Positions 4,081-54,149 of a DNA stretch of 64,000 bases are shown here, in pieces. The notes under the pieces were generated by a model. The model made no database searches, was not told the DNA's origin, and saw only the letters and a program-made list of their open reading frames with translations. The stretch spans positions 64,367-128,366 of the forward strand of contig JAZJXT010000006.1 in NCBI GenBank assembly GCA_040390725.1, given 5' to 3'. The position numbers and the translations under genes were made by a program. Source of the stretch: Patescibacteria group bacterium (GTDB taxonomy: Bacteria; Patescibacteriota; Minisyncoccia; Phycocordibacterales; UBA9973). Position 1 is the stretch's first letter. Every line of letters begins with the position of its first letter.

Positions 4081-4211
4081 ATTATTTAACACCGTTAAAG
4101 AGACTTCTAACGGGATCCATATCTTCACTATACAAAAACTCCCCCATTTCCGCAATCATCAAAAATTGGCAAAAAATTAGCACAGCTTTTTATCGCTGTG
4201 CTTTTAATTAC

Positions 4212-4649
4212 TTAGGCTGTCTTTTCTGGCCTACCATCTGGGAAGAGGATGTTTTCTCTTCTAGTAACCATTTGATCGCTGGTAAACCCATGATACGGAT
4301 TTTCCTCCAGATGGAGAAAAAGTTCCTCAGCTAAAGTCTCTTCTCCGATTGTCATTTCCCTGGACTTAACCGGGGTAACTCCATCAGATTTTTTCCATGT
4401 GTGAATAGCATTTTCCCACTCTCCTTGATATGGCATTATACCACTGGGATGATTTGGGAATCTTGTTAATTCACCCTTAGTGACATGTCTTTCACCGCTA
4501 GGTTTCATGTAAAAAAAATCATTTTCTTGTTTACCATCCTTACCATTAAACACTGCGGTCCGACAAATAAACAAGTTGTTGCTTTGAGTGTCAATACACT
4601 TCCACGAAACTGTGGAGTTTTTTGATGAACTACTGCTAATTTCTGCCAT
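4212..4649 (-). CDS. hypothetical protein
   Basis: 145-aa ORF with compact coding look and no family recognised by eye. Confidence 0.4.
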   Translation of the reverse strand: MAEISSSSSKNSTVSWKCIDTQSNNLFICRTAVFNGKDGKQENDFFYMKPSGERHVTKGELTRFPNHPSGIMPYQGEWENAIHTWKKSDGVTPVKSREMTIGEETLAEELFLHLEENPYHGFTSDQMVTRRENILFPDGRPEKTA

Positions 4650-4734
4650 AATCTGAATATTTAAACGTGTTGAAATCCGTGTAAAGCATAGCAGTTACGT
4701 GCTTGTTTGTCAAGTATGTATACTAAGGCTTAAA

Positions 4735-5700
4735 ATGTATAATGTTTACATGCATATTTCAACCATTATCATCCCTGTCCGCCCACAACCAGATACTATT
4801 TTAGCTATCTACCTTTTGAAGCGTTTCGGCACAAAAAAATTCCCCGGAATAGAAAAAGCTATAATTACAATAGACAAATACGCTGGGTCTAAAGACAAAA
4901 CTTATGAAGAATACCTAAAAAATGGAGAACTTTTGGTAGATGTAGGCGGTGGCCCTTATAATCATCACCATACTAAAATCCATACTACAGCATCGATGCT
5001 CGTCGCGGAGGACTTGAGCATCAACAAGGATCCTTCTTTGAGCAAACTTTTAAAGTATGCGGAACGAGATGACAAATTCGGCCTCGGCACCATCTCCAAA
5101 GATCCACTCGATAAAACTTTCGGACTTTCAGGATTGATATATTCAATGAATAAACAATATCCGAATGACCCGAACAAAACTATAAATGCTACCATTGAAT
5201 TTTTTGAAGCACACTATTTAGAAGAAAAAAGTAGAATAGAAGAACTGCCAAAAATTTATAATGAATTAAAAAAAGAAGGAAAAGCAATAGAGGTAAAACT
5301 TACTTCATTAAAAGCTGTCCTCATAGAGTCCGACAATATCAGCATGCCAGGATATTTACGTGCCGGAGCCGGAGGCAGATACGACATAGTTGTGCAAAAA
5401 AGATCAACTGGCCATGTAAATATACTTTCTCGTTTGCAAAAAGATAAAAAAATTCCATTAGCACAACTCGCCGCAGTCCTGCGTGCAAATGAAATTTATG
5501 CGGAAACTGGAAAAGAAAGCAGTAAAAATTATGAAGAGCTTTCCGCTCCGGGCAGAATGAATGAAACGCCAAATTGGTATTATGACCCCGCTACTAACTC
5601 TATACAAAATGGCGGAGTAAACACCGACGCCACCGTCCCAACCAAAATCCCCTGGGAGCATTTCCCGGAAATTCTTCAAATGGCTTTTGGAGATAAATAA
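4735..5700 (+). CDS. hypothetical protein
   Basis: ORF 4699-5700 (333 aa); likely start at Met-13 (4735) or Met-18; divergent from the 4212-4649 gene; no family recognised. Confidence 0.45.
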   Translation: MYNVYMHISTIIIPVRPQPDTILAIYLLKRFGTKKFPGIEKAIITIDKYAGSKDKTYEEYLKNGELLVDVGGGPYNHHHTKIHTTASMLVAEDLSINKDPSLSKLLKYAERDDKFGLGTISKDPLDKTFGLSGLIYSMNKQYPNDPNKTINATIEFFEAHYLEEKSRIEELPKIYNELKKEGKAIEVKLTSLKAVLIESDNISMPGYLRAGAGGRYDIVVQKRSTGHVNILSRLQKDKKIPLAQLAAVLRANEIYAETGKESSKNYEELSAPGRMNETPNWYYDPATNSIQNGGVNTDATVPTKIPWEHFPEILQMAFGDK

Positions 5701-5741
5701 AACTATTTCTTTTCTTGATTTGGCATAGGATTCTAAAATTT

Positions 5742-7016
5742 TTATATCCAAAAAGAAACCATAGCAGAAATGCCGACTAGGGCCATGAGGAAAAAAGTTA
5801 TTTGGCCTATAATTTTAGTCAAAGGACGATTTTTATGTTCTCCCATTACTTTTTCATTTGAACTCAAGCCTAAAATAAGAAAAATAATAATAGGGGCAAC
5901 AAAGCCATTTAATACAGCTGAATAAATAAGTGCTTTGATAGGATCAAGGCCTATAAAATTCAGTAAAATACCTAAACCAACAGCAAGTATTATGACTCCA
6001 TAAAAAGCCATGGCTTCGCGCCATTTCCTGTAAAGACCTTCTCTCCAATCAAAATATTCCGATACAGCATACGACACTGAACCTGCGAGCACAGGTATGG
6101 CCAAAAGCCCGGTGCCTACTATGCCTATCGCAAAAAGAGTATAAGCGAAATTCCCGGCAAGAGGCTTTAATGCAAGTGCGGCATCGGATGCTGTAGTAAT
6201 ATTTGTAATACCATTTTTAAATAAAATAGCCCCGCAAGTGACAATAATAAAAAACATGACCGTATTTGAAAAAAACATCCCCGACCACACGTCGGTGCGC
6301 ATTTTTTTAATATCTTCTTTTATTTCAAGATCAGAAGAAATACCTTCGGTGATTTGCGGAGATAAATTATATTCTTCCACTTCTACAGAAGTCTGCCAGA
6401 AAAAAAGATATGGGGAAATAGTCGTTCCTAGAATAGCGCAAATTAAAATCAAATTATCTTTAGTAAAATGAAAACTCGGGATAACAGTATTTCTGAAAAC
6501 TTCCGCCCAATCCACAGACACTACAAGTGCGCAAAGAATATAAGCTAGGAGCACAAATGTTAAGTATTTTAAATATTTAGCATATGTTTTATAAGGAATA
6601 AAAATCTGCAAAGCGAGTGAAAGAATTGCAAAAAAAATCACGAGCAGGGCAAAATAAAATTTTGGAAAAAGCAATTGTGTGCCCTGAGCCATGGCACCCA
6701 AATCCGCACCGATATTAAAAACATTTGCAAAAAGTAAAAGTGCAGCACAAATAAAAAGAACCTTTTTGGAATAATATTTTTTTATATTAGTAGCGAGCCC
6801 GGTACCAGTGACGAGCCCGATACGCGCGCACATCTCCTGCACTACAGCCATCAAAGGGTATGTAAAAAGTGAAAGCCAAACAAATCCGAAACCAGTCGAT
6901 GCGCCCGCTTGCGAATATGTGGCGATGCCAGAAGGGTCATCGTCAGCAGCACCCGTGACTAGCCCGGGGCCTAAAACTTTCCAATAATTTTTTACTGTTT
7001 TAATTATTTTTTCCAT
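5742..7016 (-). CDS. NRAMP-family divalent metal (Mn2+/Fe2+) transporter, divergent
   Basis: 424 aa polytopic membrane protein; N-terminal GPGLVTGAADDDPSGIATYSQAGA resembles the NRAMP/MntH DPGN signature region. Confidence 0.55.
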   Translation of the reverse strand: MEKIIKTVKNYWKVLGPGLVTGAADDDPSGIATYSQAGASTGFGFVWLSLFTYPLMAVVQEMCARIGLVTGTGLATNIKKYYSKKVLFICAALLLFANVFNIGADLGAMAQGTQLLFPKFYFALLVIFFAILSLALQIFIPYKTYAKYLKYLTFVLLAYILCALVVSVDWAEVFRNTVIPSFHFTKDNLILICAILGTTISPYLFFWQTSVEVEEYNLSPQITEGISSDLEIKEDIKKMRTDVWSGMFFSNTVMFFIIVTCGAILFKNGITNITTASDAALALKPLAGNFAYTLFAIGIVGTGLLAIPVLAGSVSYAVSEYFDWREGLYRKWREAMAFYGVIILAVGLGILLNFIGLDPIKALIYSAVLNGFVAPIIIFLILGLSSNEKVMGEHKNRPLTKIIGQITFFLMALVGISAMVSFWI

Positions 7017-21944: not shown

Positions 21945-22505
21945 ATGAATGAATTAGAAAAAAAAGAAAAAGGAAAGGGTTGGTTTAGGGTAGAAAATAT
22001 CTTTATTGATAAGTACGCAGAAATAATTGGCTACACCGCTTCAATCATTTATATATGTATCAGAAGACACGAGTATTTAAACAAAAAAGTTGCTTTTCCG
22101 TCAGAAGAATTTATTGCAAAAAAACTTGGCATGAACACAAGGACAGTTATTAGACACCTAAAAATATTAAAAGCTCACAATTTAATAATCGTAAAAAAAT
22201 TAAAACACAATGGGAAGCACTATAATAATACATATTTATTGACTCCAGCAAATGAATGGTTGATTAAACCAGGAGAATTTACGCAATCCCCTTACGTGAC
22301 AAATAATACTCCTACACCTGACAAAAAAGACATAGACCAAGTGACAGAAAGTCACAGTAATAAGACTAATATAAAGAAGACTAATATAAAAAGTGATTCT
22401 TTAAAAGAATCAGGAGAAGATACAGAAAAAGTCTCTAGTAATTTCTTAAAAGCAATAAATGCACATAGAAAAAAACTTAATATTCAGCCTGCCATCCCCG
22501 CATGA
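21945..22505 (+). CDS. winged-helix DNA-binding protein, putative replication initiator/regulator of the integrated element
   Basis: 186 aa; N-terminal FPSEEFIAKKLGMNTRTVIRHLKILKAHNLI has a wHTH appearance similar to phage/plasmid replication initiator N-domains; Lys-rich tail. Confidence 0.45.
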   Translation: MNELEKKEKGKGWFRVENIFIDKYAEIIGYTASIIYICIRRHEYLNKKVAFPSEEFIAKKLGMNTRTVIRHLKILKAHNLIIVKKLKHNGKHYNNTYLLTPANEWLIKPGEFTQSPYVTNNTPTPDKKDIDQVTESHSNKTNIKKTNIKSDSLKESGEDTEKVSSNFLKAINAHRKKLNIQPAIPA

Positions 22506-22687
22506 GTACTTTAGCCGAAACATTACTAAACCTAAGTCCCGAAGAAAAACGCAACTTTGTTGGATTCTTTGAGCTACTTTTAAAGGTCGATAAAAGAGTG
22601 AACCCTCACCTGTACCCTATAAAATCTCTAGTGCTGAGTAACCCACTTTTGTGGCAAGATGCCGACTTGCAATGTAAAGTAGTGTAA
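22502..22687 (+). CDS. small hypothetical protein
   Basis: 61 aa; start overlaps the preceding stop (ATGA coupling). Confidence 0.3.
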   Translation: MSTLAETLLNLSPEEKRNFVGFFELLLKVDKRVNPHLYPIKSLVLSNPLLWQDADLQCKVV

Positions 22688-22705
22688 AGTATACTTAATT
22701 TATAT

Positions 22706-22882
22706 ATGAAAAATAAACCTTTCTACAAAGCAGAAGACCTCGCAAAAATGTTAGAAGTAAACATAATGACAATTTACCGTTACATAAAAGCAGGTCGCTT
22801 GAAAGCGTACAAAATCGGTCGTGATTTTAGAATTGATAAAAAAGAGTTTAATAAGTTTTTAGAAAAAGTTAAGACTAAATAA
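22706..22882 (+). CDS. excisionase-family HTH DNA-binding protein
   Basis: 58-aa ORF, below the track cutoff: MKNKPFYKAEDLAKMLEVNIMTIYRYIKAGRLKAYKIGRDFRIDKKEFNKFLEKVKTK, the typical excisionase/MerR-like HTH; ends 2 bp before the recombinase start. Confidence 0.65.
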   Translation: MKNKPFYKAEDLAKMLEVNIMTIYRYIKAGRLKAYKIGRDFRIDKKEFNKFLEKVKTK

Positions 22883-22884
22883 AT

Positions 22885-24399
22885 ATGAAAGCTATAATTC
22901 TTGCAAGAGTATCAACAGAAGAACAAAAAGAAGCGGGTAATTCCCTGCCTGCTCAAGTTGCTCGTATAGAAAGTTATTGTAAAAAAAATAACTTTACAGT
23001 TATTGACACCTATAGTTTCGATGAAAGTGCCTACAAAGAAAAACGAGACGAATTTGATAAAATTCTATCAAAGATAAACGAACAAAAGGAAAAAATTGCA
23101 ATTTGTTTTGATAAAGTTGATAGATTCTCTAGAAATGTTTTTGACCAGAGAGTATCAGCCCTATACGAATTAGCAATGAAAGATGAAGTAGAACTACACT
23201 TTGTCTCAGACAACTTAATTATCACTCCAAATATTTCCGCAACGGAGAAATTTCACTTTGGGATAAATTTAGGTCTTGCTAAATATTATTCTGATGCTAT
23301 TAGTGATAGCGTAAAGCGTACTTACGAAAAAATGAGAAGAAATGGTGTTTATCCAAGCAAGCCACCACTGGGATATGTTCGGTCAAAAGATGCTTATGGT
23401 AAAAGCACAATTATTCTCGACCTTGAACGCTCTCACATAGTTACTAAAATGTTTGAATTATATGCTACTGGAAACTACTCGATTGAAACTTTACGCCAAG
23501 AAGTAATAAAAATGGGATTAAAGAGTTACGGTGGTCTTCTTCCTCCAAAAAGTTGTATTGATAATATGATTAGAAATTCTTTTTATTATGGAATTGTTAC
23601 ATCAAAAAAATATCCTCCGTACGCACACAAATATCAAACTATAACCACTAAAGAAATTTTTGATAAATGCCAAGAAGTTAGAGAAAAAAAACGAACCAGC
23701 CGACCAAAATTTCTTTCGAAAGACTTTATTTTTAAAGGCTTACTTACTTGTAAAAATTGCAACTGCCTACTAACCCCAGAAATGCACCAGAAAAAAAGCG
23801 GGCTGGTTTTTATCTACTACTCTTGCAAAAACACAAAAGGAATATGTAAGCGTTTTTATATACCAGAAAAAAAATTACTAGAACCAATTATTAAAGACTT
23901 GGAACTTTTTGAAAAAATACCCGAAGAAGCACAAGAATATCTTGTAAAAGAATTAAGACAAGCAACAGAATCAGAAGTTGTCTTTCATAAAAACCAAGTC
24001 AGTCGCATAAGAGCCGAATACGACAGGGTTAAGCAGAGAGACGATAATCTGCTTGAAATCTTCTTAGACAAAAGTATTGATAAGGATACTTACGATAAAA
24101 AGCATCAAGAATATCAGGACAAACTCCAGCTTTTAGGTATTGAGAGCGAAGAACACACAAGAGCTGATTTTGATTATCAAACTACCGTTGCCACAATCTT
24201 TTCTATATCACGTAGAGCAAAAAGTATTTTTGAAAGTTCTGACGCTCACGAAAAAAGAGCATTTTTAAATTACTTAATTCAGAACCCGACTGTAAGTGAA
24301 AAAAACCTAGTATATACACTACGTTCTCCATATAATCTACTGCTAGAAATGACTGGTCGTCCTTCTTGGGGTGACTACTGGGAGTTGAACCCAGACTAA
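22885..24399 (+). CDS. large serine recombinase (integrase)
   Basis: 504 aa; resolvase/invertase N-terminal catalytic domain (AIILARVSTEEQKEAGNSLPAQ, catalytic Ser), recombinase domain and a zinc-ribbon (CKNCNC...CKNTKGIC); the 3' end overlaps tRNA-His. Confidence 0.9.
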   Translation: MKAIILARVSTEEQKEAGNSLPAQVARIESYCKKNNFTVIDTYSFDESAYKEKRDEFDKILSKINEQKEKIAICFDKVDRFSRNVFDQRVSALYELAMKDEVELHFVSDNLIITPNISATEKFHFGINLGLAKYYSDAISDSVKRTYEKMRRNGVYPSKPPLGYVRSKDAYGKSTIILDLERSHIVTKMFELYATGNYSIETLRQEVIKMGLKSYGGLLPPKSCIDNMIRNSFYYGIVTSKKYPPYAHKYQTITTKEIFDKCQEVREKKRTSRPKFLSKDFIFKGLLTCKNCNCLLTPEMHQKKSGLVFIYYSCKNTKGICKRFYIPEKKLLEPIIKDLELFEKIPEEAQEYLVKELRQATESEVVFHKNQVSRIRAEYDRVKQRDDNLLEIFLDKSIDKDTYDKKHQEYQDKLQLLGIESEEHTRADFDYQTTVATIFSISRRAKSIFESSDAHEKRAFLNYLIQNPTVSEKNLVYTLRSPYNLLLEMTGRPSWGDYWELNPD

Positions 24400-24441
24400 G
24401 AGCTCCACAAGCTCGTGTGCTACCGCTACACCATAGCCACC
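24367..24441 (-). tRNA. tRNA-His (GTG)
   Basis: Manual fold: G-1 paired with C73, acceptor GTGGCTA/TAGTCAC, D-arm with GG, anticodon loop TTGTGGA (anticodon GTG), T-arm CTGGG-TTCAACT-CCCAG, encoded CCA. Confidence 0.8.
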
Positions 24442-29956: not shown

Positions 29957-31705
29957 CTAATAAACCTCCTTTTGATAACACTGCTCACAGTAAATAATTT
30001 CTGGACGTTCTGGGGCATAACTTGTTTCAAATTCATTTGGGCAACTTGCCCCGCCTTGGCGTGGGATTCCGCTGTGGTCATGATTTTCTTTCTGACACAT
30101 ACACTGCCTGTGCCAGAGCTTAAATGGATTTCTGCGTTTTATTCTAGCAGCGTGGCGACAGTGAAAACATCTATGCGGAACTGGTATGTTCATTTTTTTA
30201 TAAAAAATTAATTCATTGGGAACAATTTTATAATTCCTCTCACAATCGATACACTTTAAAACTTGCTCTAAAATATCATCACCGACATCTGAAATAGCAT
30301 CCGGAATATTTTCCGGCAATAAAGTTTCTTTACCTGTCGTGCGCTGGGTATTGTCTTGCCACTTAAAACCTCTAGCTAATGCCTGTTCTTTCGTGAGTGG
30401 AAATTCTTCCATCGCTGATGTTTCATTATAACCAAACAAAGAAAGCTCAGCGGGATAAAATTCTCCGTAAGAATATTTGCATCCATTTTTATCAATATAT
30501 GGAATTTCTTCCATTTGTTTTTTTATCTTTTCAACCATTATAAAATAATCTTCTTTGGAGTATTGTTTATTTAAAATACAATAATTTCCTTTTTTCATTG
30601 AAACACAGCCAAATAAATTTTTAGAAGAATGACAATGTTGCGTATAATGCAACTCTTGGCTTTTCACAGAAAAAATTCCAAACAAATTTAACTGAGAATG
30701 ATCAACGGTCACACCGTCATAGCATTCCGTCATTTCACCGGCCGTTGATAAATCATAAGAATTGGTAGGTTTTGCGCAACCATCCATAAATCTGCAATTT
30801 TCAGGTTGTTGAGTGGAAAAAACATCTTTGGAATCTTTGCCATTAAAAATCAAATCCCCTGTGCAATTTTTACTTTGAATAATATAGGCATACCGACGAG
30901 GATAACTCAAAAGAAATTCTTTAAATTCTTTTTTAGCTCTTTCCGTGCCAGCATAAGTATCAAGTTTATATTCTGCTAAAATTTTTTCATAATCTTCTTT
31001 TGTGTATCTTTGATTTTTAAAACAATACTTTTCATTGCGAAGTCCTGTGCACATAAAACAATTCGTACAACCGCGACAATCATACATAAAAGATGAATCA
31101 ACACATGAAATACATAATTGCGCATATTTTAAACGATAAGAACTTTCACAATTAATACATTCATATAGCCATTCTGCTTTATCCATTATATACATGCAGT
31201 CCATCATGTCTTTTGCTCCATAAAGCATATAAGTGCTATACATTATGTTTTCAATTTGCCAAGAATAAAATACCATATAACAATTCTTTGCAAACCAGCA
31301 ATCGTGCGTCCATTGGCAATTTAAACTGGCAATGCCATCATCATTTACAGTGGCGACTTGAGGAACACGTTTTAGTAATTCAAGAAATTGTGTAAAAAAG
31401 GGTTTTGAAAAATCATAATCTTGCGCATAACTTTTTGGATCCCATTTATCTCCAAACCAACATTTATTGCAGTAAACAGTAATGCCTGAATCCGGAGAAT
31501 ATAAAGTAATGCCTGACTTATTACACAATGCACAAGGACGACTATAAAATGAAAGATTATTGCGCCAAGTAAAACGCCTTTGCATTCTGCATCTCGGACA
31601 AAAAGTCGGTGGAGGGACTTTTACCTTTTCATAAAAACCAAAATCATTCGGCTCGATAATAAAGTCGCTGTTACAGTTCTGACATGTTTTAGTTTCACTT
31701 TGCAT
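29957..31705 (-). CDS. large cytoplasmic Cys-rich protein with N- and C-terminal zinc-ribbon-like motifs (paralog 1 of 3); family not recognised
   Basis: 582 aa; N-term C-x2-C-x22-C-x2-C (CQNCNSDFIIEPNDFGFYEKVKVPPPTFCPRCR); C-term homologous ribbon (CIDCERNYKIVPNELIFYKKMNIPVPHRCFHCR); conserved core cluster C-x2-C-x7-DCRGC-x2-C-x2-C; tail NEFETSYAPERPEIIYCEQCYQKEVY identical in all three paralogs. Confidence 0.7.
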   Translation of the reverse strand: MQSETKTCQNCNSDFIIEPNDFGFYEKVKVPPPTFCPRCRMQRRFTWRNNLSFYSRPCALCNKSGITLYSPDSGITVYCNKCWFGDKWDPKSYAQDYDFSKPFFTQFLELLKRVPQVATVNDDGIASLNCQWTHDCWFAKNCYMVFYSWQIENIMYSTYMLYGAKDMMDCMYIMDKAEWLYECINCESSYRLKYAQLCISCVDSSFMYDCRGCTNCFMCTGLRNEKYCFKNQRYTKEDYEKILAEYKLDTYAGTERAKKEFKEFLLSYPRRYAYIIQSKNCTGDLIFNGKDSKDVFSTQQPENCRFMDGCAKPTNSYDLSTAGEMTECYDGVTVDHSQLNLFGIFSVKSQELHYTQHCHSSKNLFGCVSMKKGNYCILNKQYSKEDYFIMVEKIKKQMEEIPYIDKNGCKYSYGEFYPAELSLFGYNETSAMEEFPLTKEQALARGFKWQDNTQRTTGKETLLPENIPDAISDVGDDILEQVLKCIDCERNYKIVPNELIFYKKMNIPVPHRCFHCRHAARIKRRNPFKLWHRQCMCQKENHDHSGIPRQGGASCPNEFETSYAPERPEIIYCEQCYQKEVY

Positions 31706-31720
31706 AACCCCATTATATCA

Positions 31721-33415
31721 CTAATAAACCTCCTTCTGATAACACTGCTCGCAGTAAATAATCTCCGGGCGTTCGGGTGCATAACTTGTTTCAAATTCGT
31801 TTTTGCATCCATTATTCATACACTGCCTGTGCCAGAGTTCGCGTGGATTTCTTATCGCAAATCTTTCCTCCCTTCTGCAGGCCGGGCATTTTTGCGGAAT
31901 AGGCATTCCTGTTGCTCGATAAAAAGAAAGTTCGAGGTTTACTATACGAAAAGCGGTGGAACAATTCGGCGATATATTTACGGTACTATTATTTTGAGAA
32001 GAACACTTTATTATTTGTCCCAAAATATCGTCTGTTGTTTCATTTATGGTTTTAGGAATTTGCGCCGTTTCCATGGTAATTTGGTAATTTCTTTCAGGGC
32101 GGTCATACCAAGCATACCCCGCTTTTAATGCTTCGTCTTTTGAAAGTGGGAAGTAATCATAAGCCACAGACTCATTGTATGCAAATGGCGCTATTATTTT
32201 TGGATCAAAAAACTCTCCCCACTCGCCTGTTTTTTTCATATGCTCTATAATTTTTTCTTTGAGCACAAAATATTCTTCTTTTGAATATTTTTTATTTAAA
32301 ATACAATACTCCTTCTGACGCAAACCCATACAGCCAAAGCATTCCGACAAGGTATTGCACATATCACAATAATAAGAATCACTCATATGAAAAGAACTGC
32401 GAATTGAAATTGAATTTCTTATAAAGGCACACCCTTGAATTTGATATGATAGCTCATTGCTTAAAATTTCTGTTATATCACGGCAGTCTTCTGCTTCCCA
32501 TGCATCCTGCAAATAAGCAGTATCTTTATTTCTTCTGCAATTAAAACTTTCTTTTGTGTTGGCTGTATTCTCCAAATAATCTCCTGAAAAATTAACATTA
32601 TTTGACCCGTGATAATATTTTTTCGGCAAACTTAAAGAAAGTTTTTTTATTTCTTTTTTTGCCCACTCAATATTTTCATGATTCCATAAAAAACTTTTTA
32701 ATTTATTTTGATATTCTTCCGGGGAAAGCTGTTTATTAAACCAGCAATTACTTTTGTTTCGCAAATTTACGCACCCAAAACAATTATTGCATCCTCTACA
32801 ATCTTCGGAAAAATAACAAGAAACACAATTTGAGCAATCTTTTAAATAAGATGACTTGGAACATCTAGCGGAACTCATGCACTCATAAGAATATTCAAAT
32901 TTCTCAACCATATAACAATCGGAACAAAAATAACAATCCTCTTGATACCAATTTCCATACATGCATTTTTCACTACCGTTTGTAGCAGACACCATATAGC
33001 AATCTTTATTATTTTGTAGCTGATTTGAATATTCACAATTTTCATTATTTGATCCTACTAATGCCACATGTGGCACAACATCATGTAAGTCTTTAAATTG
33101 CTCAAAAAACGGACGGGAAAAATCAAAATCCCTGCCGAAAGTAGATGCTTCCCATTTATCGCTCCACCAGCATTCATGGCAATACACCGGAAAAATTACA
33201 TCATCTCGATATATTGAAATAATATTTTTTTTGCATAAATCGCAAGTCCTTTTATTTAAACTCCATTCATTTCTATTTAAAAGTCTTTTGATATAACGAC
33301 ACTCTGGGCAAAAAGTCGGTGGAGGGACTTTTACCTTTTCATAAAAACCAAAATCATTCGGCTCGATAACGAAATCTTTTTTACAGCTTTGGCAATTTCT
33401 GTTTTCACTTTGCAT
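31721..33415 (-). CDS. large cytoplasmic Cys-rich zinc-ribbon protein (paralog 2 of 3)
   Basis: 564 aa; same N-terminal and C-terminal motifs and identical 26-aa tail; divergent central region; 15-bp spacing to paralog 1. Confidence 0.7.
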   Translation of the reverse strand: MQSENRNCQSCKKDFVIEPNDFGFYEKVKVPPPTFCPECRYIKRLLNRNEWSLNKRTCDLCKKNIISIYRDDVIFPVYCHECWWSDKWEASTFGRDFDFSRPFFEQFKDLHDVVPHVALVGSNNENCEYSNQLQNNKDCYMVSATNGSEKCMYGNWYQEDCYFCSDCYMVEKFEYSYECMSSARCSKSSYLKDCSNCVSCYFSEDCRGCNNCFGCVNLRNKSNCWFNKQLSPEEYQNKLKSFLWNHENIEWAKKEIKKLSLSLPKKYYHGSNNVNFSGDYLENTANTKESFNCRRNKDTAYLQDAWEAEDCRDITEILSNELSYQIQGCAFIRNSISIRSSFHMSDSYYCDMCNTLSECFGCMGLRQKEYCILNKKYSKEEYFVLKEKIIEHMKKTGEWGEFFDPKIIAPFAYNESVAYDYFPLSKDEALKAGYAWYDRPERNYQITMETAQIPKTINETTDDILGQIIKCSSQNNSTVNISPNCSTAFRIVNLELSFYRATGMPIPQKCPACRREERFAIRNPRELWHRQCMNNGCKNEFETSYAPERPEIIYCEQCYQKEVY

Positions 33416-33430
33416 ATTTTTGTAAAAATT

Positions 33431-33646
33431 TTAAATATAAAAATCTCTATCGGAGATAGCGGATTGCCTGATAATTGAATGCATCGTTCCAACAGGAATT
33501 TCTTTTTTATTCGCCGGAACGATAACGGTCAGAACTTTTCTTTCATATTTTCTATATTTTATATGGCTTCCGTTTTGAGAAATAAAAATAAAACCGTTCT
33601 TTTCTAAAATTTTTACTACTTGCCTTGAAGAAAAAAGTTTAGGCAT
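33431..33646 (-). CDS. hicA: HicA-family mRNA interferase toxin
   Basis: 71 aa; SRQVVKILEKNGFIFISQNGSHIKYRK fits the HicA/YcfA pattern (KxxExxGxxxxRxxGSHxxY). Confidence 0.7.
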   Translation of the reverse strand: MPKLFSSRQVVKILEKNGFIFISQNGSHIKYRKYERKVLTVIVPANKKEIPVGTMHSIIRQSAISDRDFYI

Positions 33647-33857
33647 ATTTTAAATCCATAGAAAATATTTCCGGGCTTCTGACTTCTTGGAATTTTGGAG
33701 CTTTAACATCTTCAAAATAAAGATCAATGGCTTCGCTCAAGTTTTTCAATGCTTCTTTTTTAGTTTTTCCAAAACTTGAAACATCAACATTTAAACACTG
33801 AGAAACATAGTATTTTCCCTCTTTCCAAACTATATTTTTAAGATTAAAATTCTTCAT
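33639..33857 (-). CDS. hicB: HicB-family antitoxin
   Basis: 72 aa; overlaps hicA by 8 bp; EGKYYVSQCLNVDVSSFGKTKKEALKNLSEAIDLYFE matches the HicB N-domain consensus. Confidence 0.65.
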   Translation of the reverse strand: MKNFNLKNIVWKEGKYYVSQCLNVDVSSFGKTKKEALKNLSEAIDLYFEDVKAPKFQEVRSPEIFSMDLKYA

Positions 33858-33895: not shown

Positions 33896-35596
33896 CTAAT
33901 AAACCTCTTTCTGATAACACTGCTCACAATATATAATTTCTGGTCTTTCGGGCGCATAACTGGTTTCAAATTCATTTTGACATTTGCTTTGATGTTCATG
34001 ATTTTCTTTTTCACACATACACTGCCTGTGCCAAAGTTTATTTGGTCCACGATTTTTTACTCGTCTTGTATGCCTGCATTCGGGACAATTCCTAGGAATT
34101 GGTATTTCCATTCTTTTATAAAAAGAAAGTTCATCCACAATGATACGATAATTTTTATTGCATTCTACGCAAATAAAAACTTCTTTACCAACATCAAAAT
34201 CCGCCGACAAATCTTTTATTCCATCTGGAAAATTTTTCCAATCCACCGTCTCTTTGCCATAAGTCCCCCGCGGAGTATCTTCCCATTTAAAACCTTTTTC
34301 CAAAGCTTGTTCTTTTGTTAATGGAAATTGTTCCATAACACAAGCTTCATTGTAACCAAAACACGAAAGACTAGCTGGGAAAAAATCTCCGTATTCTCCT
34401 TTTTCTTTCATCTGATTTACTATTTTTTCTTTTAAAATTTTATATTCCTCCGGAGAATATTGTTTATTTAAAATACAATATTTTTTCTGACGCATGCCAA
34501 TGCAACCGAAAAGTTCTTGCGAACCCAGACAGTGAAAAGAATATTCCGCAAATGAAGTCCCCCATGTGAGCAAAGTAACAATATTATTCGAAGCTTCTTG
34601 CCCTGAATTCACACATTGATAATTATTAGTAGAAACACGCCCGACTGTATCGCAATCCATATTGTCTTTTGCATTTCTCCAAGCATGCACGCAATATCTG
34701 CAATCTTCTGCTTCATAAGAGTGAAAACAGTGGTGATTATTTTTAACATTAGTCATATAATTTCCGGTAGAATTTACAACATTAAAAACTTCAGCGAATT
34801 TTCTAGGCTTGTCTTTTATAAAATTTTGAAATTCTTTTTTAAAATTTTCTACGCCGGAAAAAGTATCGAGACGAAAAGATTTTAATTTATTTTCATAATC
34901 TTCTTTGGAATATTTTACATTAAAAATACAATGTGATTGCTGGCGTAAATTGATACAACCTAGGCAACTCGTACATCCACGACAATCAAGTAAAAAAGAA
35001 CTATCTATGCAACTATGACATCCTTTTGAAAAACGAAGGTTGTTACAATCAAAACAATCATCAACTTCGTAAGACAATTCAACTTTATTTGTAAAAGCGC
35101 AATCCACTAATTCTTTTGAAAGCTGAATCCAATAACAATTTGTGCAATTTTCATTATTAGAACTTTCAACAATCATATAACAATTTTTATTGTCGGCAGA
35201 AATATTTATATATTCTGAATTTACGCTGCGCACGTGCATCAACCCGATTCTCGGCACAACATTCCAAAGTTCTTCAAATTGTTCTAAAAAAGTTCTATTC
35301 AAATCATATTCTTTTGCATAGTCCTCTCCTCCCCAGCCATCGGCATTCCAACAATCATTACACCATACAGTGTAAGGTTTGTTCGGACTATACATTGAGA
35401 CTTTATCTTTTTTGCATTTATCACAAGCTCTTTTATAAAAAGTTCTTTCATTTCTAAAAGACAATCGCAACTGCGCTCTGCATTCCGGACAAATTTTTGG
35501 CGGAAGCACACCCATTTTTTCATAAAATCCAAAATCATTCGGCTCGATGACAAAATCTTTTTTACAATTTTGGCATACCTTGTTTTCAGCTTGCAT
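33896..35596 (-). CDS. large cytoplasmic Cys-rich zinc-ribbon protein (paralog 3 of 3)
   Basis: 566 aa; same architecture and identical C-terminal tail; starts 5 bp after the rluA stop. Confidence 0.7.
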   Translation of the reverse strand: MQAENKVCQNCKKDFVIEPNDFGFYEKMGVLPPKICPECRAQLRLSFRNERTFYKRACDKCKKDKVSMYSPNKPYTVWCNDCWNADGWGGEDYAKEYDLNRTFLEQFEELWNVVPRIGLMHVRSVNSEYINISADNKNCYMIVESSNNENCTNCYWIQLSKELVDCAFTNKVELSYEVDDCFDCNNLRFSKGCHSCIDSSFLLDCRGCTSCLGCINLRQQSHCIFNVKYSKEDYENKLKSFRLDTFSGVENFKKEFQNFIKDKPRKFAEVFNVVNSTGNYMTNVKNNHHCFHSYEAEDCRYCVHAWRNAKDNMDCDTVGRVSTNNYQCVNSGQEASNNIVTLLTWGTSFAEYSFHCLGSQELFGCIGMRQKKYCILNKQYSPEEYKILKEKIVNQMKEKGEYGDFFPASLSCFGYNEACVMEQFPLTKEQALEKGFKWEDTPRGTYGKETVDWKNFPDGIKDLSADFDVGKEVFICVECNKNYRIIVDELSFYKRMEIPIPRNCPECRHTRRVKNRGPNKLWHRQCMCEKENHEHQSKCQNEFETSYAPERPEIIYCEQCYQKEVY

Positions 35597-36338: not shown

Positions 36339-36474
36339 AATTTTAGGATTATAACATAAATATTTATGAATATTTGACTATTTAATATGTATTTATGATA
36401 TAATAAATCTATTAAAAAGTTATTATTAAATTAATCTGCCCCGAAAAACTTTTTTAAGTTGGGGTAAAAAAATT

Positions 36475-40840: not shown

Positions 40841-40925
40841 TTGTCAAATTTTCTTGCGGCGCATTCACTAGCTTGGACGGAATGTAATTTAGTAAAAAAA
40901 AATAAAAAAGTGATATAATAAAAAG
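40841..40925 (+). promoter_or_regulatory. conserved promoter/5'UTR cassette, copy A (upstream of the MazF-like gene)
   Basis: ttgtcaaa-N23-cttggacg-gaatgtaatttagtaaaaaaaaataaaaaagTGaTATAATaaa; copy B at 44974-45061 is about 90% identical over the 3' 55 bp; contains an extended -10 (TGnTATAAT). Confidence 0.5.
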
Positions 40926-41339
40926 ATGGAAAAAGACTTTGACAATTGGAATACTCAAAAAAAATTAGTCGAGATAAATAACCGTGAGGTATTCGGCTAT
41001 CCGCGTGAAGTGTGGTGGTGTTCTTTTGGAGTTAATGTTGGCGCCGAAGTTGACGGAAAAAATGAAAATTTTGAACGACCTGTTATAATTATGAGAGTTT
41101 ACAATAAAGAAACTATGCTGGTGTTGCCGACAACAGGAAGAGAAAAGAGGGACAATTACCATATTTCAGTAGAAGTAAATAGTGTAAATGCAAGAACTGG
41201 AGAACATTTCAAGAAAACAGTGTATGTAAAATTAACTCAAGCACGAGTAATAAGCAACAAAAGATTATTAAGAAAAGTTGATGTTATTGGTGAAAAAGAA
41301 TTTGAAATTATTAAAAGTGCTTTTAGAAAATTTACCTAA
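40926..41339 (+). CDS. PemK/MazF-like endoribonuclease toxin (solitary)
   Basis: 137 aa; REVWWCSFGVNVGAEVDGKNENFERPVIIMRV...MLVLPTTGREKR parallels the Kid/MazF motif (GEIWWVDFGxxVGSEQxxRRPVLVVS...VVPLTS). Confidence 0.5.
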   Translation: MEKDFDNWNTQKKLVEINNREVFGYPREVWWCSFGVNVGAEVDGKNENFERPVIIMRVYNKETMLVLPTTGREKRDNYHISVEVNSVNARTGEHFKKTVYVKLTQARVISNKRLLRKVDVIGEKEFEIIKSAFRKFT

Positions 41340-44973: not shown

Positions 44974-45061
44974 TTGTCAAACCCAACGTATTGGTTCAAT
45001 AACTTGGACGAAGTATAATTTAGTAAAGAAAAAAATAAAAAAATGATATAATAAATACCTT
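44974..45061 (+). promoter_or_regulatory. conserved promoter/5'UTR cassette, copy B (upstream of the NYN gene)
   Basis: ttgtcaaa-N21-cttggacg-aagtataatttagtaaagaaaaaaataaaaaaaTGaTATAATaaa; see copy A at 40841-40925. Confidence 0.5.
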
Positions 45062-45766: not shown

Positions 45767-45862
45767 TTAGTAGGATTACTCCTACATTTGGTAGTATAGC
45801 AAAAAAACGTAAAAAGTCAAAAGTTATCCACAAGTGATATAATAAAGGTATAAAAAATTAAA

Positions 45863-48539: not shown

Positions 48540-51500
48540 ATGAAATTATTTAAAAAATTAAATTTAATATCACATATTACAATTCTAATAATATTAGGAT
48601 TTGGCTTAATTTCATTTTCTCAAAATGCTTTAGCATCAGCTACTGTGACTGCAGGATTAGGTGGGTCTACAATATCAGCTGATACTAATATCACAAACGG
48701 CACATCGGCAACTTGGACAAATATTTCTACTACTAATCCTACCATAACAGAAGGTTCTTTCGGTGATATTGGATTAGGCACAATTATTTTAAACGCTCCA
48801 AGCGGTTTTCAATTTAATACAACAAGCTCTGTAACGGCAACCGTAACAACAAATGGTAATTGTAGTTCCGGAACTTCAGTAAAATTAAATAGTTCTTTAT
48901 CTCAGACCGTTACTCCGGCAACAGGTACAATCACAATAAATGTGTCACAAGTTTCAAGTGGTTCTGGAAGTGCTTGTAAAAGTATTATTACTTACACAGG
49001 AATAAAAGTCCGCCCATCAACCGGCACTCCGCTCGCATCCGGCAACATTACTAAAAGTTCTTCTTCAACTTCTACAATATCCGGTGTCACAAACGGCTCG
49101 ACAAATTTTGGAACTCTTACTGAATCTGCCGGAGCAGTTTCCGCAGTTTCTGTTTCTCCTGCAAGCCCGACTGTTGCTTCCGGATCAACTCAACAATTCA
49201 CTGCGACTGCCACTGACACTTATGGAAATACATTATCAGGACAAACTTTTACTTGGTCTATAACTAGTGGCCCAGGCAGTATAAATTCAAGCGGACTTTT
49301 TTCTGCTACAACAGCAGGAACTTCTACGGTAAAAGCTTTGGACGGCGCAACTGTTTTCGGAACTGCTACCATTACAACGACTACTGCTCCTGATTTAACT
49401 GCTGGAGCAACCAGCCCGACGACTAGCACCGCAGGTGCAACACAAACTTTCAGTTCTACAATTTCAAACTCCGGTACAGCTTCTACCGGAGCTGGCTTTA
49501 CAACTCTCTTTCAAAAAGCAAATGACTCTATCGGTACTGGAGCAGTTGATGTCGGAACATATGCAAATACCACAATCACCGCAGGTGGAACACAGACTGC
49601 AACTCTTTCGTATGTTTTACCAAATACTGTAGGCACTATATATATGCGAGCTTGCGCTGACAAAAGCTCAATGGCGGACACTGGAACAATTACAGAATCA
49701 AATTCCGGAGGGACAGGAGAAAGTAATAACTGCGGAGCTTGGACGGCGGTCACTTTAACAGCCGGAACTTTAGATCACTTTGCTTTTTCAAATGTCGGCA
49801 CTCAAGTTGCCGGTACGCCTTTCAATGTTACTATAACAGCACAAGATGTAAACAATAATACAGTGACAAGTTATACAGGCTCTACTGCTAAAGTAAATTT
49901 CACGGTTACTAGTGGAACAATTTCACCGACGCAATCCAGCACGTTTACTTCCGGAGTACTTACCAATCAATCCATTACTTTAACCGGCACAAACTCTGCT
50001 ATGATCATAACTGCGACGGATAACGGAGGTACAGGAAAAACTGGAACTTCAAATTCGTTTACAGTAAATGCTGGAGCAGTTTCTGCCATCACAGTATCTC
50101 CCTCTTCAGCCTCATTCACAGCTGGCTCTTCATCTACTCAACAATTTACAGCAACAGCAAAAGATGCAAATAATAATACAAGATCAGGAGATAGTTTTAC
50201 TTGGTCAATAACTGCTGGTGGAGGAAGTATTACTTCGGGAGGAGTTTACACGTCAGGAAATACTGCAGGGAATTTTACTGTAACAGCTACTGACGGAGCA
50301 GTTTCTGGAACTGCTACTGTGACAATCACAGCCGGCGCAGTCGCAAACGTTACCGTCTCCCCCGCAAGTGCGACTGTTACTGCCGGTTCTACTCAACAAT
50401 TTACCGCGACAGCCAGAGACTCCGGTGGAAATACCGTCTCAGGACAAACTTTTACTTGGTCAGTCAGTGGAGGACTGGGCACAATAAGTTCAACTGGTTT
50501 ATACACAGCCAAAACTGCCGGAACATTTACAGTCACAGCTACAGATAATTCTATTTCCGGAAATGCTTCAGTAACTGTAAATGCTGGAACATTTACTAAA
50601 TTGCAAATACTTCTTCCTGGAGAGACAGCTTCCGCGGGAAGTTCTACGGGAAAAACTGGGACACCTTCTGCTCAAACTGCAGGCGTTTCATTTTCAGTCA
50701 TAGTAAATGGAGTTGATGCAAACTGGAATGTTGTAAGTTCTGCAATAGATACCGTAAGTATTACTTCTACAGATGGTAGTGCAACACTACCGGTAACGTC
50801 TGCATTAATAGGAGGCACAAAAACTTTTTCTGTAACACTAAATACAGTCGGAACAAAAACAATTACCGCGAGTGATACTGTATCCCACAGTGGTATCACT
50901 GCAAACACTTCACCATCAATAACTGTAAATGCCGGAGTAGTCGCTACAGTAACCGTCTCCCCTGCATCAACATCTGTCACACAGGGCTCAATAACAACAA
51001 CTCAATTCACCGCTACATCAAAAGATTCTGCAGGTAATACAATTTCTGGAGACACTATAAATTGGTCAGTGAGTACAAATGGAGGTTCGATTACTTCTGG
51101 AGGACTTTACACACCCAGCACCACTGCAGGCTCGTACACAATTACAGCTACTGACGGATCTGTTTCCGGAACTGCAACTGCGACAATAAATGCAGCACCT
51201 GATTTAACAATCGGCGCAATAAATCCAACTTCAGTAAATGCAGGGTCTGCTCAAACTTACACTGCAACAATCACAAACCTGGGAGGTGGTTCCACTGGAG
51301 CAACATTTACAACTCTCTTCCAAAGCGCAACTGATGCAAATGGAACAGGAGCTGTAGACTTAGGCACTGATGCCGATGCAATTTTATCCGGAGGCGGAAC
51401 ACAAGCAACAACATTTTCATATACAAATAATACTGCAGGAACTTTCTATATGCGTGCTTGCGCTGATAAAAGTTCCGCTGGAAATGCAGGTGTAATTTCA

Positions 51501-54149
51501 GAATGGAATTCCGGAGGAACAGGTGAATTAAATAACTGCGGGGCATGGACTGCTATCACAGTCAATGCTGGAGCATTTAGTAAACTACAATTACTAGTCC
51601 CAGGTGAAACTGCAAATCCTGGTAGTGCAACTGGAAAAACTGGAACCCCAACAACAGAAACTGCCGGCATACCTTTTAACGTGACAGTTAATGCAGTGGA
51701 TGCAAACTGGAATGTTGTCAGTTCAACACATACAATAAAAATAACTTCGAGCGATGGTGCAGCTACTCTGCCTGTAAACTCTGCATTAATTTCCGGAACA
51801 AAAAATTTCACTATTACTTTAAATACTTACACCAGTAAAACTTGGACAATCACTGCGACAGACGTGACTGATGGCACAAAAACTGCAAACACTTCCCCAG
51901 GCATAAGTATAAACCGCGGACTTGATCACTTTTCTTTCGCAACTATCGCAGACCAAACGACCGGCGTATCTTTCCCGATTACAATCACAGCAAAAGATTC
52001 TCAAAATAATACTGTCACTGGATTTGCCGGCAGTGTAAATTTAACCACCAATGATACTTCTATCACTCCGACTGTGTCTGGAATATTTTCAAGTGGAGTA
52101 GCTACTGTTTCTGCGGTGACATTAACAGGCACAGGAGCTTCAAAAACAATCACTGCCACAGATGCAGCCGGAACAGGCATAGTGGGAACTTCAAATACTT
52201 TCAGAGTTTACTATCCTGTCACTTCCACATCCCCTCTTTCACCGACGACAACAGGTAATTTAAATAGTTGGTATCTTTCCGGTTCAGCTCCGACAAAACA
52301 ATCCGCACTAGCAGACATTGACGATACGACTTTTATTTCTTTCGGACCGGACGCGCAAACTTTCACAATGACAAATAGCACAATACCACCAGGAGCAAAT
52401 ATCCTCGGTGTAACACTAAATGTCACCGCAGCAAAACCAACAGGAGGCGCGACTACAAGCATGCAAATGATCGCAGAAAATGGCACAGGCGCAAATCAAC
52501 AAATCATAGACGGCACAGTGCGAACACTTACAAAGACTTTCACCAATTACAGCTGGAACATACCGACGATGCCGGATGGATCACCTTGGACATTAGCGGA
52601 AGTAAATAATTGGACGACAAAATTCGGAATCCTAAAATCAAATTTCACCGGCACAGCAGAGGTCAGCAAAGTCTGGGTATCAGTCGCCTACTCTACTACT
52701 TCATCCACGCCGAGCTGTAAATTGGGAGTGGATCTTTCTGGAGATGGAGGATTGACTTGGGGAAATGAACAAACAACCGCGTCCCTTTCCACCACTAATC
52801 AGACTTATGTCTTAGGTGGAAGTGGAGATACTTGGGGCAATGGTTCTGGATGGAATGCCACAAACCTTGCAAATGGAAAATTTATAGCCAGAGTCCACGC
52901 GGTAAATTATGGAAATAGTTGTTCGAGCACTGATGTTGATTACTTAGATTGGATTCGACTAAAAGCAACTTTCAAAGTAGACATAGCGAGACAGCTAGCT
53001 TTACAGGCAGCCGATGCGGCAAAAAAAGCCACGACTACTCCGATAGATATATTTAGTATTTATTTTGATTCCAGTAAATTCGCAAATGGAAATGGACTGA
53101 CAAATGCAAATCTTTTAGCGTCTATCGCTTCCGGAAGTACTCCAAACGTTCCTTACCAAAATGGTTCAGCAAATAATATTGCAGGAGTAATATCCGACTC
53201 AGACATTGCTGTGCCCCTTGTCTCTGCTGTGTCTCCTAGTGAATGGACAAATCCGGACAATGCTCTCACCAGTGCCTCATATGCCACTAGTAGTACGGGT
53301 CAACAACAAGGTTATACAGGCTTTGGTTTTAATGTTCCGCCCGTAGCGACTATTACAGGAATAGAAGCAGATATGTCAGCATTCAATACAAATGGTGGTG
53401 ACATTAAAGCAGAAATTTCAACAGACGGGGGAACAACTTATACTAATACTTCTGCCTTGCCAGGATACGCAACTGCGACTCTGACCGGTACGGCAAAAAG
53501 TGTATCAATAGGAGGAACAGGAAAACTTTGGGGAAGAAATAATTGGATCTCAAGTGATTTCAATACAGGCAACGTAGTTCTTAAACTTATAAATGATGCA
53601 TCAGGTGGAACAATTTCAGTCAATCAAATAAAAATAAAAGTTTATTATACCGTTGACTCAGCAAATGCTGATGGTGACAATTTCTTCATTGCTCCAAATT
53701 CGAGTAACATTACAGATATTTTCAATTTCATAGGAGAACAAGTTTGCCCTGCCCTGCTTTACACAGCTCAAGCTCCCCCTCCAACCACTGCTACAATTAC
53801 TACAATAGTTCGCACTATTAATTCAAATTCCGGCACTAAACAATCCAGTAATTTTTCTGTAAATGTAAATCCAACTTCACAATCAACGACTACTTTCTCA
53901 GGGTCTGATACCCCGGGCACAAGTACTGTTATAAATCCAGACACTTATACTGTCTCAGAAAGCCCAATGACTGGGTACACCGAAAGCTTTGGCGCAGGTT
54001 GCATAGCTGATGGCACTACAGATTACCCTACCCTAATCGCCGGAGAAACTCGTGTATGTATTATTACCAATAACGACATTCCTGCCCCACCCCCTCCTCC
54101 AAACCTCAACATCATCCCATCTACCTGGCAGGAAATACCGACCCAATAG
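48540..54149 (+). CDS. giant secreted adhesin with many bacterial Ig-like (Big_2-type) repeats
   Basis: 1869 aa; signal/TM N-terminus; repeated V(S/T)VSPASxTVxAGSTQQFTATAxDxxGNTxSGQTFTWS modules; Ser/Thr/Gly-rich; C-terminal region homologous to the 46367 gene C-terminus. Confidence 0.75.
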   Translation: MKLFKKLNLISHITILIILGFGLISFSQNALASATVTAGLGGSTISADTNITNGTSATWTNISTTNPTITEGSFGDIGLGTIILNAPSGFQFNTTSSVTATVTTNGNCSSGTSVKLNSSLSQTVTPATGTITINVSQVSSGSGSACKSIITYTGIKVRPSTGTPLASGNITKSSSSTSTISGVTNGSTNFGTLTESAGAVSAVSVSPASPTVASGSTQQFTATATDTYGNTLSGQTFTWSITSGPGSINSSGLFSATTAGTSTVKALDGATVFGTATITTTTAPDLTAGATSPTTSTAGATQTFSSTISNSGTASTGAGFTTLFQKANDSIGTGAVDVGTYANTTITAGGTQTATLSYVLPNTVGTIYMRACADKSSMADTGTITESNSGGTGESNNCGAWTAVTLTAGTLDHFAFSNVGTQVAGTPFNVTITAQDVNNNTVTSYTGSTAKVNFTVTSGTISPTQSSTFTSGVLTNQSITLTGTNSAMIITATDNGGTGKTGTSNSFTVNAGAVSAITVSPSSASFTAGSSSTQQFTATAKDANNNTRSGDSFTWSITAGGGSITSGGVYTSGNTAGNFTVTATDGAVSGTATVTITAGAVANVTVSPASATVTAGSTQQFTATARDSGGNTVSGQTFTWSVSGGLGTISSTGLYTAKTAGTFTVTATDNSISGNASVTVNAGTFTKLQILLPGETASAGSSTGKTGTPSAQTAGVSFSVIVNGVDANWNVVSSAIDTVSITSTDGSATLPVTSALIGGTKTFSVTLNTVGTKTITASDTVSHSGITANTSPSITVNAGVVATVTVSPASTSVTQGSITTTQFTATSKDSAGNTISGDTINWSVSTNGGSITSGGLYTPSTTAGSYTITATDGSVSGTATATINAAPDLTIGAINPTSVNAGSAQTYTATITNLGGGSTGATFTTLFQSATDANGTGAVDLGTDADAILSGGGTQATTFSYTNNTAGTFYMRACADKSSAGNAGVISEWNSGGTGELNNCGAWTAITVNAGAFSKLQLLVPGETANPGSATGKTGTPTTETAGIPFNVTVNAVDANWNVVSSTHTIKITSSDGAATLPVNSALISGTKNFTITLNTYTSKTWTITATDVTDGTKTANTSPGISINRGLDHFSFATIADQTTGVSFPITITAKDSQNNTVTGFAGSVNLTTNDTSITPTVSGIFSSGVATVSAVTLTGTGASKTITATDAAGTGIVGTSNTFRVYYPVTSTSPLSPTTTGNLNSWYLSGSAPTKQSALADIDDTTFISFGPDAQTFTMTNSTIPPGANILGVTLNVTAAKPTGGATTSMQMIAENGTGANQQIIDGTVRTLTKTFTNYSWNIPTMPDGSPWTLAEVNNWTTKFGILKSNFTGTAEVSKVWVSVAYSTTSSTPSCKLGVDLSGDGGLTWGNEQTTASLSTTNQTYVLGGSGDTWGNGSGWNATNLANGKFIARVHAVNYGNSCSSTDVDYLDWIRLKATFKVDIARQLALQAADAAKKATTTPIDIFSIYFDSSKFANGNGLTNANLLASIASGSTPNVPYQNGSANNIAGVISDSDIAVPLVSAVSPSEWTNPDNALTSASYATSSTGQQQGYTGFGFNVPPVATITGIEADMSAFNTNGGDIKAEISTDGGTTYTNTSALPGYATATLTGTAKSVSIGGTGKLWGRNNWISSDFNTGNVVLKLINDASGGTISVNQIKIKVYYTVDSANADGDNFFIAPNSSNITDIFNFIGEQVCPALLYTAQAPPPTTATITTIVRTINSNSGTKQSSNFSVNVNPTSQSTTTFSGSDTPGTSTVINPDTYTVSESPMTGYTESFGAGCIADGTTDYPTLIAGETRVCIITNNDIPAPPPPPNLNIIPSTWQEIPTQ

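Follow-up and report, generated by a model that had tools for sequence, protein, structure and literature searches.

What makes two neighbouring genes with strongly diverged cores identical, base for base, over 61 nt near their 5' ends? The genes in question, P1 and P2, lie together with a third copy, P3, in a 64,000-nt stretch of a Patescibacteria group bacterium contig (JAZJXT010000006.1, positions 64,367 to 128,366; here called the window), where they form a tandem set on one strand and encode Cys-rich proteins of ~570 aa (Table 1). We favour, with a probability of about 80%, two superimposed processes: purifying selection that acts throughout the protein family, and a recent short-patch interlocus gene conversion from a P1-type gene into P2.

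The 61-bp identity between P1 and P2 that the original prediction reported is exact, with a mismatch at the next base on either side. The two copies are the sole matches to this sequence in the window even with three mismatches allowed (0 expected by chance), and they lie in direct orientation, 1710 nt apart and at equal offsets within their genes. The tract covers codons 17-35, which encode IEPNDFGFYEKVKVPPPTF, and extends partly into codons 16 and 36; in the first zinc ribbon it falls between the CxxC knuckles, C8/C11 and C36/C39. Identity along the genes is far from uniform, as had been proposed: P1 and P2 agree at 70% of positions over gene nt 1-46, at 100% over nt 47-107 and at 33% over nt 108-167, and the cores of the three paralogs, also as proposed, are much more diverged than the ends, with 35-43% aa and about 50-56% nt identity. 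The regions upstream of the two genes are unrelated. Being bounded on both sides, the tract is a patch (a non-reciprocal tract) and not a hybrid gene from a single crossover. The homologous segment of P3 has two differences from P1 and P2 in its first 33 nt, where it has the genome-specific N20 codon AAT in common with them; the remainder is P3-class, and the same-codon excess of P3 in this segment is not significant alone.

Pure functional constraint, in which identical residues and an AT-biased codon usage produce the match without any DNA-level exchange, is a rival that we consider quite unlikely. The tract does fall inside the most conserved bin of the family and many of its codons are preferred ones (AAT, GAT, TTT, TAT and GAA), but under the codon usage of the window itself, 19 identical residues would all have identical codons with a probability of 3.9e-7. 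When the codons of the whole gene pair were redrawn in 5000 simulations, the longest run averaged 17 nt with a maximum of 50, and 61 nt was reached in 0/5000; the observed run thus exceeds what amino-acid constraint and codon bias provide. P1 and P2 use the same codon at 19/20 identical residues in aa 17-36 (10 expected), at 4/8 in aa 1-16 and at 1/10 in aa 37-60. Codons of low usage are common to both tract copies (ATC 0.15, GAG 0.20, AAG 0.14, GTC 0.17), and synonymous sites at the tract positions vary freely among 177 homologs.

Constraint also leaves unexplained that P2 has residues within the tract that are foreign to its class. G23, K29 and P32 of the window P2 are P1-like and present in 0/10 of the closest P2-class orthologs (69-77% identical, from a second database search), and shortly after the end of the tract, at aa 41, the P2-class signature YIKRLxNRNEW is back. 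At the nucleotide level the P2 tract is closest to P1 (100%), followed by P1-class genes from other genomes (88-90%), whereas the P2 core is nearest to an ortholog in another genome, L025_4856 (L numbers denote the loci described below), at 72% nt and 78% aa identity, against 50% nt and 35% aa for P1; in the tract, P2 and this ortholog are 68% identical at the nucleotide level. The P2 tract therefore groups with a paralog and the P2 core with an ortholog, the incongruence by which gene conversion is recognised. Together with the class-typical residues, it indicates a P1-type gene as the probable donor and P2 as the recipient.

The other cores likewise have their best orthologs elsewhere, that of P3 at 71% to L026_14441 (and 65-66% to L027_8249 and L020_2969) and that of P1 at 65% to L007 and L001. 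Since each core is closer to genes of other genomes (65-78%) than the three are to each other, P1, P2 and P3 represent ancient classes that predate speciation. A recent whole-gene duplication followed by fast divergence of the cores was rejected on the same ground.

Comparable tracts recur in other Paceibacteria genomes. A family profile was used to fetch 80 genome loci, which provide 252 within-genome paralog pairs, 77 of them adjacent. When the longest aligned run of each pair was compared with simulations using locus-specific codon usage, 10/252 pairs had P≤0.001 (0.25 expected) and 23 had P≤0.01; the top six pairs are all immediately adjacent genes with their runs in the N-terminal ribbon. 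A second test considered N-terminal runs of ≥30 nt inside the first 50 codons, with between-genome control pairs matched for third-position GC content (GC3). Such runs occur in 8/77 adjacent and 4/175 non-adjacent within-genome pairs and in just 3/1871 between-genome pairs (Fisher odds ratio 72, p=6e-10), a rarity that, in pairs with the same residues, also speaks against pure constraint, and 7/36 genomes with adjacent pairs are affected. Determined free of alignment, the longest common substrings are 65 nt in L037, 51 in L073, 44 and 41 in L076, 38 in L027, 35 in L051 and 32 in L074. All except the shortest lie inside gene nt 13-107, and the L074 tract spans nt 115-146 in one copy and nt 70-101 in the other. 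Because they differ in sequence and boundaries, these tracts are separate events in different genomes, independent of each other but at one hotspot, and constitute a recurrent, low-rate property of the arrays. The hotspot is the segment where diverged paralogs keep most nucleotide similarity, which fits an exchange that would depend on similarity.

On this evidence the proposed account has two parts. Purifying selection keeps the terminal zinc ribbons of this CPR-wide (Candidate Phyla Radiation) family of ~575-aa proteins alike, on either side of a poorly conserved core. In addition, interlocus gene conversion has probably transferred 61 nt or more from the first zinc ribbon of a P1-type gene to P2, the adjacent upstream gene, leaving the flanks of the patch untouched. 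Homologous recombination or template switching could have been seeded in the sole segment with enough nucleotide similarity, and extension of the heteroduplex could have been halted by the divergence on either side.

Several observations weigh against this account or restrict it. The mean end similarity of within-genome paralogs is no higher than that of between-genome pairs: at matched core divergence, mean identities of the N/C segments within and between genomes are, for example, 0.681 vs 0.676 and 0.617 vs 0.616. The direction of transfer rests on class-typical residues, and the closest orthologs of P1 are themselves split between KVKVPPPTF-like and KIGVPAPTF-like forms; N20, moreover, is commoner in the P2 class (6/10) than in the P1 class (1/11). 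Given N20 and the near-identical first 33 nt of the P3 segment, the tract region may have a composite history, with several events or transfer in more than one direction. The tandem loci L085 and L086, which contain close P2 orthologs, show no tract. The closest known homologs are only 75-77% identical, no unconverted P2 allele was seen among them, and a search of 5.8 billion proteins returned no relative closer than 77%. Finally, the source sequence is a metagenome-assembled contig.

The pattern of constant ends and variable middles was taken in the original prediction as a sign of concerted evolution, and in this respect the data point elsewhere. Among 177 full-length members, conservation (as mean majority frequency) peaks in two 20-aa bins, aa 21-40 at 0.83 and aa 561-580 at 0.78, and falls to 0.29-0.5 in core bins. 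Since the terminal ribbons are under purifying selection, any two members from any genomes will show constant ends and a variable middle. A family-wide excess of within-genome similarity, as sustained concerted evolution would produce, was not found at matched core identity; with the means equal and only the tails enriched, conversion appears to be sporadic.

The 3' ends illustrate the selective component. The predicted identity of about 85-90% is borne out, all three pairs being 85-88% identical across the final 81 coding nt, and is accounted for by 26 identical residues and codon bias. The last 26 residues (NEFETSYAPERPEIIYCEQCYQKEVY) are the same in all three proteins, and the same codon is used at 16-18/26 of them vs 13.7 expected (P 0.05-0.2), near the slight excess seen in the cores. 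A 109-nt repeat family running past the stop codon is 79-82% identical among its copies. Similarity past the stop codon, which would mark DNA-level homogenisation, is absent from the three genes and stops at the common TAG, and long C-terminal runs show no within-genome enrichment. We conclude that the 3' ends have undergone no recent nucleotide conversion and that the identical tail reflects mainly constraint. The gene-conversion signature originally proposed for both ends therefore stands for the 61-nt tract, with its synonymous identity, sharp borders and P1-class residues, and not for the 3' ends; strict functional constraint, offered as the alternative, accounts for the 3' ends and fails for the N-terminal tract.

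Some features of the tail nevertheless go beyond what is typical of each class. Q575, together with K579 and Y582, is common to all three window copies and rare in their own classes, Q575 being present in 0/10 P2-class and 1/11 P1-class orthologs. C-segment identity of ≥0.9 occurs in 12/252 within-genome pairs vs 35/1871 GC3-matched between-genome pairs (odds ratio 2.6, p=0.009), and of the 25 alignment columns where the within-genome excess is strongest, 14 belong to the variable termini, in aa 2-23 or aa 556-582. The common Q575, K579 and Y582 suggest either an older conversion whose trace at synonymous sites has faded, or a shared interface under parallel selection. A further reading, tentative and on balance rather unlikely, is that the terminal ribbons form a genome-specific docking or assembly interface and the cores act as specificity modules, with selection matching the ends and conversion supplying the matching. 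It would explain the rare CEQCYQKEVY tail and N20 in all three window copies, the concentration of within-genome excess at the termini, and the surplus of near-identical C-termini within genomes. If it were true, the family would be a CPR-specific array of constant docks and variable cores.

An assembly or polishing artefact, in which bubble-popping or mis-mapped reads merged similar paralog segments, is very unlikely. The window does come from a metagenome-assembled genome (MAG), and assemblers can merge exact repeats near the k-mer length; however, bubble merging by assembler defaults needs at least ~95% prior similarity, and the flanks of the tract are so divergent (33% just downstream) that tract-spanning reads would map uniquely. 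Comparable tracts with different sequences are moreover present in seven other MAGs of unrelated studies, preferentially between adjacent genes.

Programmed cassette-type variation, also raised in the original prediction, would make the constant ends recombination sites that shuffle cores between an expression site and donors. The constant-variable-constant layout, the tandem direct repeats and a serine recombinase gene 5.5 kb away are in keeping with such a system, but it is highly improbable here and the suggestion is not upheld. The cores are stable, ancient classes with 65-78% identical orthologs in distant Paceibacteria genomes, the three open reading frames (ORFs) are complete and each has its own start, and a six-frame scan of the 64 kb with a hidden Markov model profile found nothing else with E<0.2 and no truncated, fragmentary or silent copies. 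The converted DNA is the constant part and not the variable core, and the recombinase gene sits by tRNA-His in the fashion of an integrase.

A nucleotide-level functional element in the 5' coding region (an RNA structure, a small-RNA or antisense target, or an internal signal), selected to be identical in co-expressed neighbours, would agree with the recurrence of tracts in the same gene region in several genomes, yet it is scarcely credible given folding z-scores of -1.5, -0.2 and -0.8 with no significant RNA structure, tract sequences and boundaries that differ among genomes, synonymous sites that vary family-wide, and a P3 that is without the identity. The target of a diversity-generating retroelement, for which a TR/VR repeat pair with adenine-specific mismatches would be expected, was also considered and is ruled out by the 100% identity, the N-terminal position and the 61-nt length; a scan for a reverse transcriptase that was limited to the ten neighbouring proteins found none.

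Table 1. Positions of the paralogs, their shared segments and other features within the window.
Feature	Position	Strand	Description	Basis
P1	29957-31705	minus	582 aa, canonical member of Paceibacteria-wide Cys-rich family, four zinc ribbons	ORF and translation
P2	31721-33415	minus	564 aa, divergent class, core 35% aa identity to P1	ORF and translation
P3	33896-35596	minus	566 aa, third class; core 43% to P1, 39% to P2	ORF and translation
P1 copy of 61-nt tract	31599-31659	minus	gene nt 47-107, codons 17-35	
P2 copy of 61-nt tract	33309-33369	minus	gene nt 47-107; putative converted patch	
P3 homologous segment	35490-35550	minus		codon alignments
P1 3' end	29957-30040	minus	aa 556-582 and TAG; second knuckle of fourth zinc ribbon, NEFETSYAPERPEIIYCEQCYQKEVY	
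P2 3' end	31721-31804	minus	same 26 residues; synonymous differences from P1 at 8/26 codons	
P3 3' end	33896-33979	minus	same 26 residues; synonymous differences at 8-10/26 codons	
P2-P1 spacer	31706-31720	minus	15 nt, TGATATAATGGGGTT; holds extended -10-like TGATATAAT 6 nt before P1 ATG	
HicA toxin gene	33431-33646	minus		Pfam HicA_toxin, E=2.4e-17
HicB-like gene	33639-33857	minus	72 aa; overlaps HicA gene, upstream of it	weak DUF7387 match
TGATATAAT sites	31712-31720	minus	each just before an ORF start	
	36396-36404, 40911-40919, 45044-45052, 45835-45843	plus		
38-nt repeats	30545-30582, 30989-31026, 32270-32307, 34442-34479, 34895-34932		mostly 79-89% identical	
	30818-30855		weaker sixth copy, 68%	
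HTH/DnaD_N-like gene	21945-22505		precedes serine recombinase gene	
Large serine recombinase	22885-24399		abuts tRNA-His on opposite strand	Resolvase, Recombinase and Zn_ribbon_recom domains
tRNA-His	24367-24440			
1869-aa ORF	48540-54149	plus	several internal diverged direct repeats	

The proteins belong to a very large family. P1 has >6000 homologs, the best of them with a full-length identity of 60-76%; the groups named as their sources are Paceibacterota, Nomurabacteria, Minisyncoccia and other Patescibacteria. The P1 protein is 100% identical to an NCBI MAG entry, 'hypothetical protein V4439_04230 [Patescibacteria group bacterium]', and a 130-kb contig of an NCBI Patescibacteria MAG has 'hypothetical protein' entries that match P1 and P2 at 100%. 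Scans of the paralogs with Pfam, NCBIfam and PADLOC assigned no family and gave just sub-threshold zf_Tbcl/LIM matches, and a PHROGs scan gave one weak PHROG of unknown function and no family. Weak zf_Tbcl (PF13451) matches (E 0.005-0.04) cover the N-terminal CxxC-x24-CxxC module, with scores of 14.5 bits for P1 and 17.3 bits for P3, no match for P2, and a gathering threshold of 24 bits; a precomputed PF13451 match is present in one homolog cluster. A literature search on the family, or on gene conversion in CPR bacteria, found nothing specific.

Alignments reveal invariant Cys quartets that define four CxxC...CxxC zinc ribbons, two N-terminal and two C-terminal, at C8/C11/C36/C39, C58/C61/C79/C82, C485/C488/C513/C516 and C535/C555/C573/C576 of full-length P1; numbering is one lower in the two alignments (A1 and A2) and in the structure model, from which M1 is missing. 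The AlphaFold2 model of P1 (pLDDT, the predicted local distance difference test, 82.9; pTM, the predicted template modelling score, 0.86) is confident in the terminal thirds and weaker at about 120-230 and 270-380. No fold match to this model was found in the PDB with Foldseek and a PDB sequence-profile search returned nothing; against viral models (BFVD), Foldseek gave just ~43-residue matches to a 'putative zinc-ribbon domain'. The Cys-rich stretches at ~120-230 and 270-380 each end in YC(F/I)xNKQY(S/T)KE(D/E)Y, and by eye the Cys-rich core looks like an internal duplication. A family of 38-nt repeats is present in two or more copies per gene, and because the repeat corresponds to the YC(I/F)xNKQYSKE(E/D)Y motif that closes each core half, it too points to a putative internal duplication in the protein.

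Family members at the 80 loci stand in same-strand tandem arrays with between one and nine copies. At L004, L025, L028, L073, L074, L076 and L078 the array comprises 6-9 full-length paralogs in some 20 kb, a large share of these small Paceibacteria genomes. The neighbours of the arrays differ by genome, with RuvX, tRNA-binding and PilM genes in some and ribosomal or type IV secretion system (T4SS) coupling genes in others. At L086 a TrwB/T4SS coupling-protein homolog (3969-6176) beside the array has a zf_Tbcl_2 (PF23477) zinc-ribbon domain, so small zinc modules of this kind also occur in other CPR proteins.

In the window, the 480-nt gap between P3 and P2 is occupied by the HicA toxin gene and a small HicB-like gene upstream of it, a pair (33431-33857) that breaks an otherwise tight tandem array. 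The extended -10-like motif in the P2-P1 spacer has 5 occurrences in the window vs 1.25 expected, every one just before an ORF start, and it stands 6 nt ahead of the ATG for the gene at 40926 as it does for P1. This spacing suggests leaderless or near-leaderless transcripts, and a candidate promoter of P1's own inside the spacer. Nearby genes are of an ordinary cellular kind and include those for ribosomal protein L19, tRNA-Leu, a C39 peptidase, VanW, a P-type ATPase, an RluA-type pseudouridine synthase, and type II/IV secretion ATPase and platform proteins. The region at 21945-24440, with the serine recombinase, looks like the edge of an integrated element, and a similar recombinase lies near a family gene at L001. 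The 1869-aa ORF has direct repeats of 210 nt at 49128/50331 (71%) and of 167 nt at 50574/51558 (72%), as well as 39-44-nt families, and probably encodes a large repeat-domain protein.

Short-patch conversion between old tandem paralogs is a textbook process and the mechanism is not new; here it takes the form of sporadic micro-patches between long-diverged tandem genes, in a CPR family that is uncharacterised. The case points to homologous exchange at work in reduced CPR genomes, acting on a very large unnamed family whose arrays reach nine tandem copies per locus. Phylogenies and ortholog assignments that rely on the terminal segments of these genes can be misled, and identical direct repeats that lie in frame 1.7 kb apart offer ready substrates for contraction or expansion of the array. 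With its four zinc ribbons and duplicated Cys-rich core, the family would be a sensible subject for structural and functional studies of CPR biology.

Among known systems, the tufA/tufB genes and the rRNA operons are the classic bacterial cases of homogenisation. Recurrent concerted evolution of prokaryotic paralogs has been catalogued by Wang & Chen 2018 (PMC6053082). As in bacterial interlocus conversion generally, paralogs of one genome are closer to each other in a segment than each is to its ortholog, synonymous sites are homogenised, and the events recur in several lineages and are favoured by proximity. The window differs from bacterial concerted evolution in that its paralogs are very old (35-43% aa) and exchange here is limited to a tiny patch, 32-65 nt long, within the one module that is most conserved; it is also sporadic and leaves no average within-genome excess, in contrast to concerted evolution of whole genes over long periods. 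Mosaic divergence through similarity-limited, short-tract conversion is reported for TLR1/TLR6 (PMC2077338) and the tandem HMA4 paralogues (bioRxiv 10.1101/2025.10.29.685298). They agree with the present locus in their tandem layout and in the confinement of conversion to conserved stretches while the remainder diverges; they are eukaryotic and have longer tracts, whereas the setting here is a reduced CPR genome and an uncharacterised family. With the zf_Tbcl treble-clef/zinc-ribbon family the proteins have in common the N-terminal CxxC-x24-CxxC module, though they score under its gathering threshold and their 575-aa architecture is without counterpart in Pfam, NCBIfam, PADLOC or the PDB. Neisseria pilE/pilS and Borrelia vlsE achieve cassette-based antigenic variation by gene conversion. 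The window genes resemble these in their constant flanks, variable middles and in gene conversion as the DNA mechanism, but they have no silent cassettes and no expression-site asymmetry, their cores are conserved across genomes, and in these cytoplasmic-looking zinc proteins it is the constant part that is converted.

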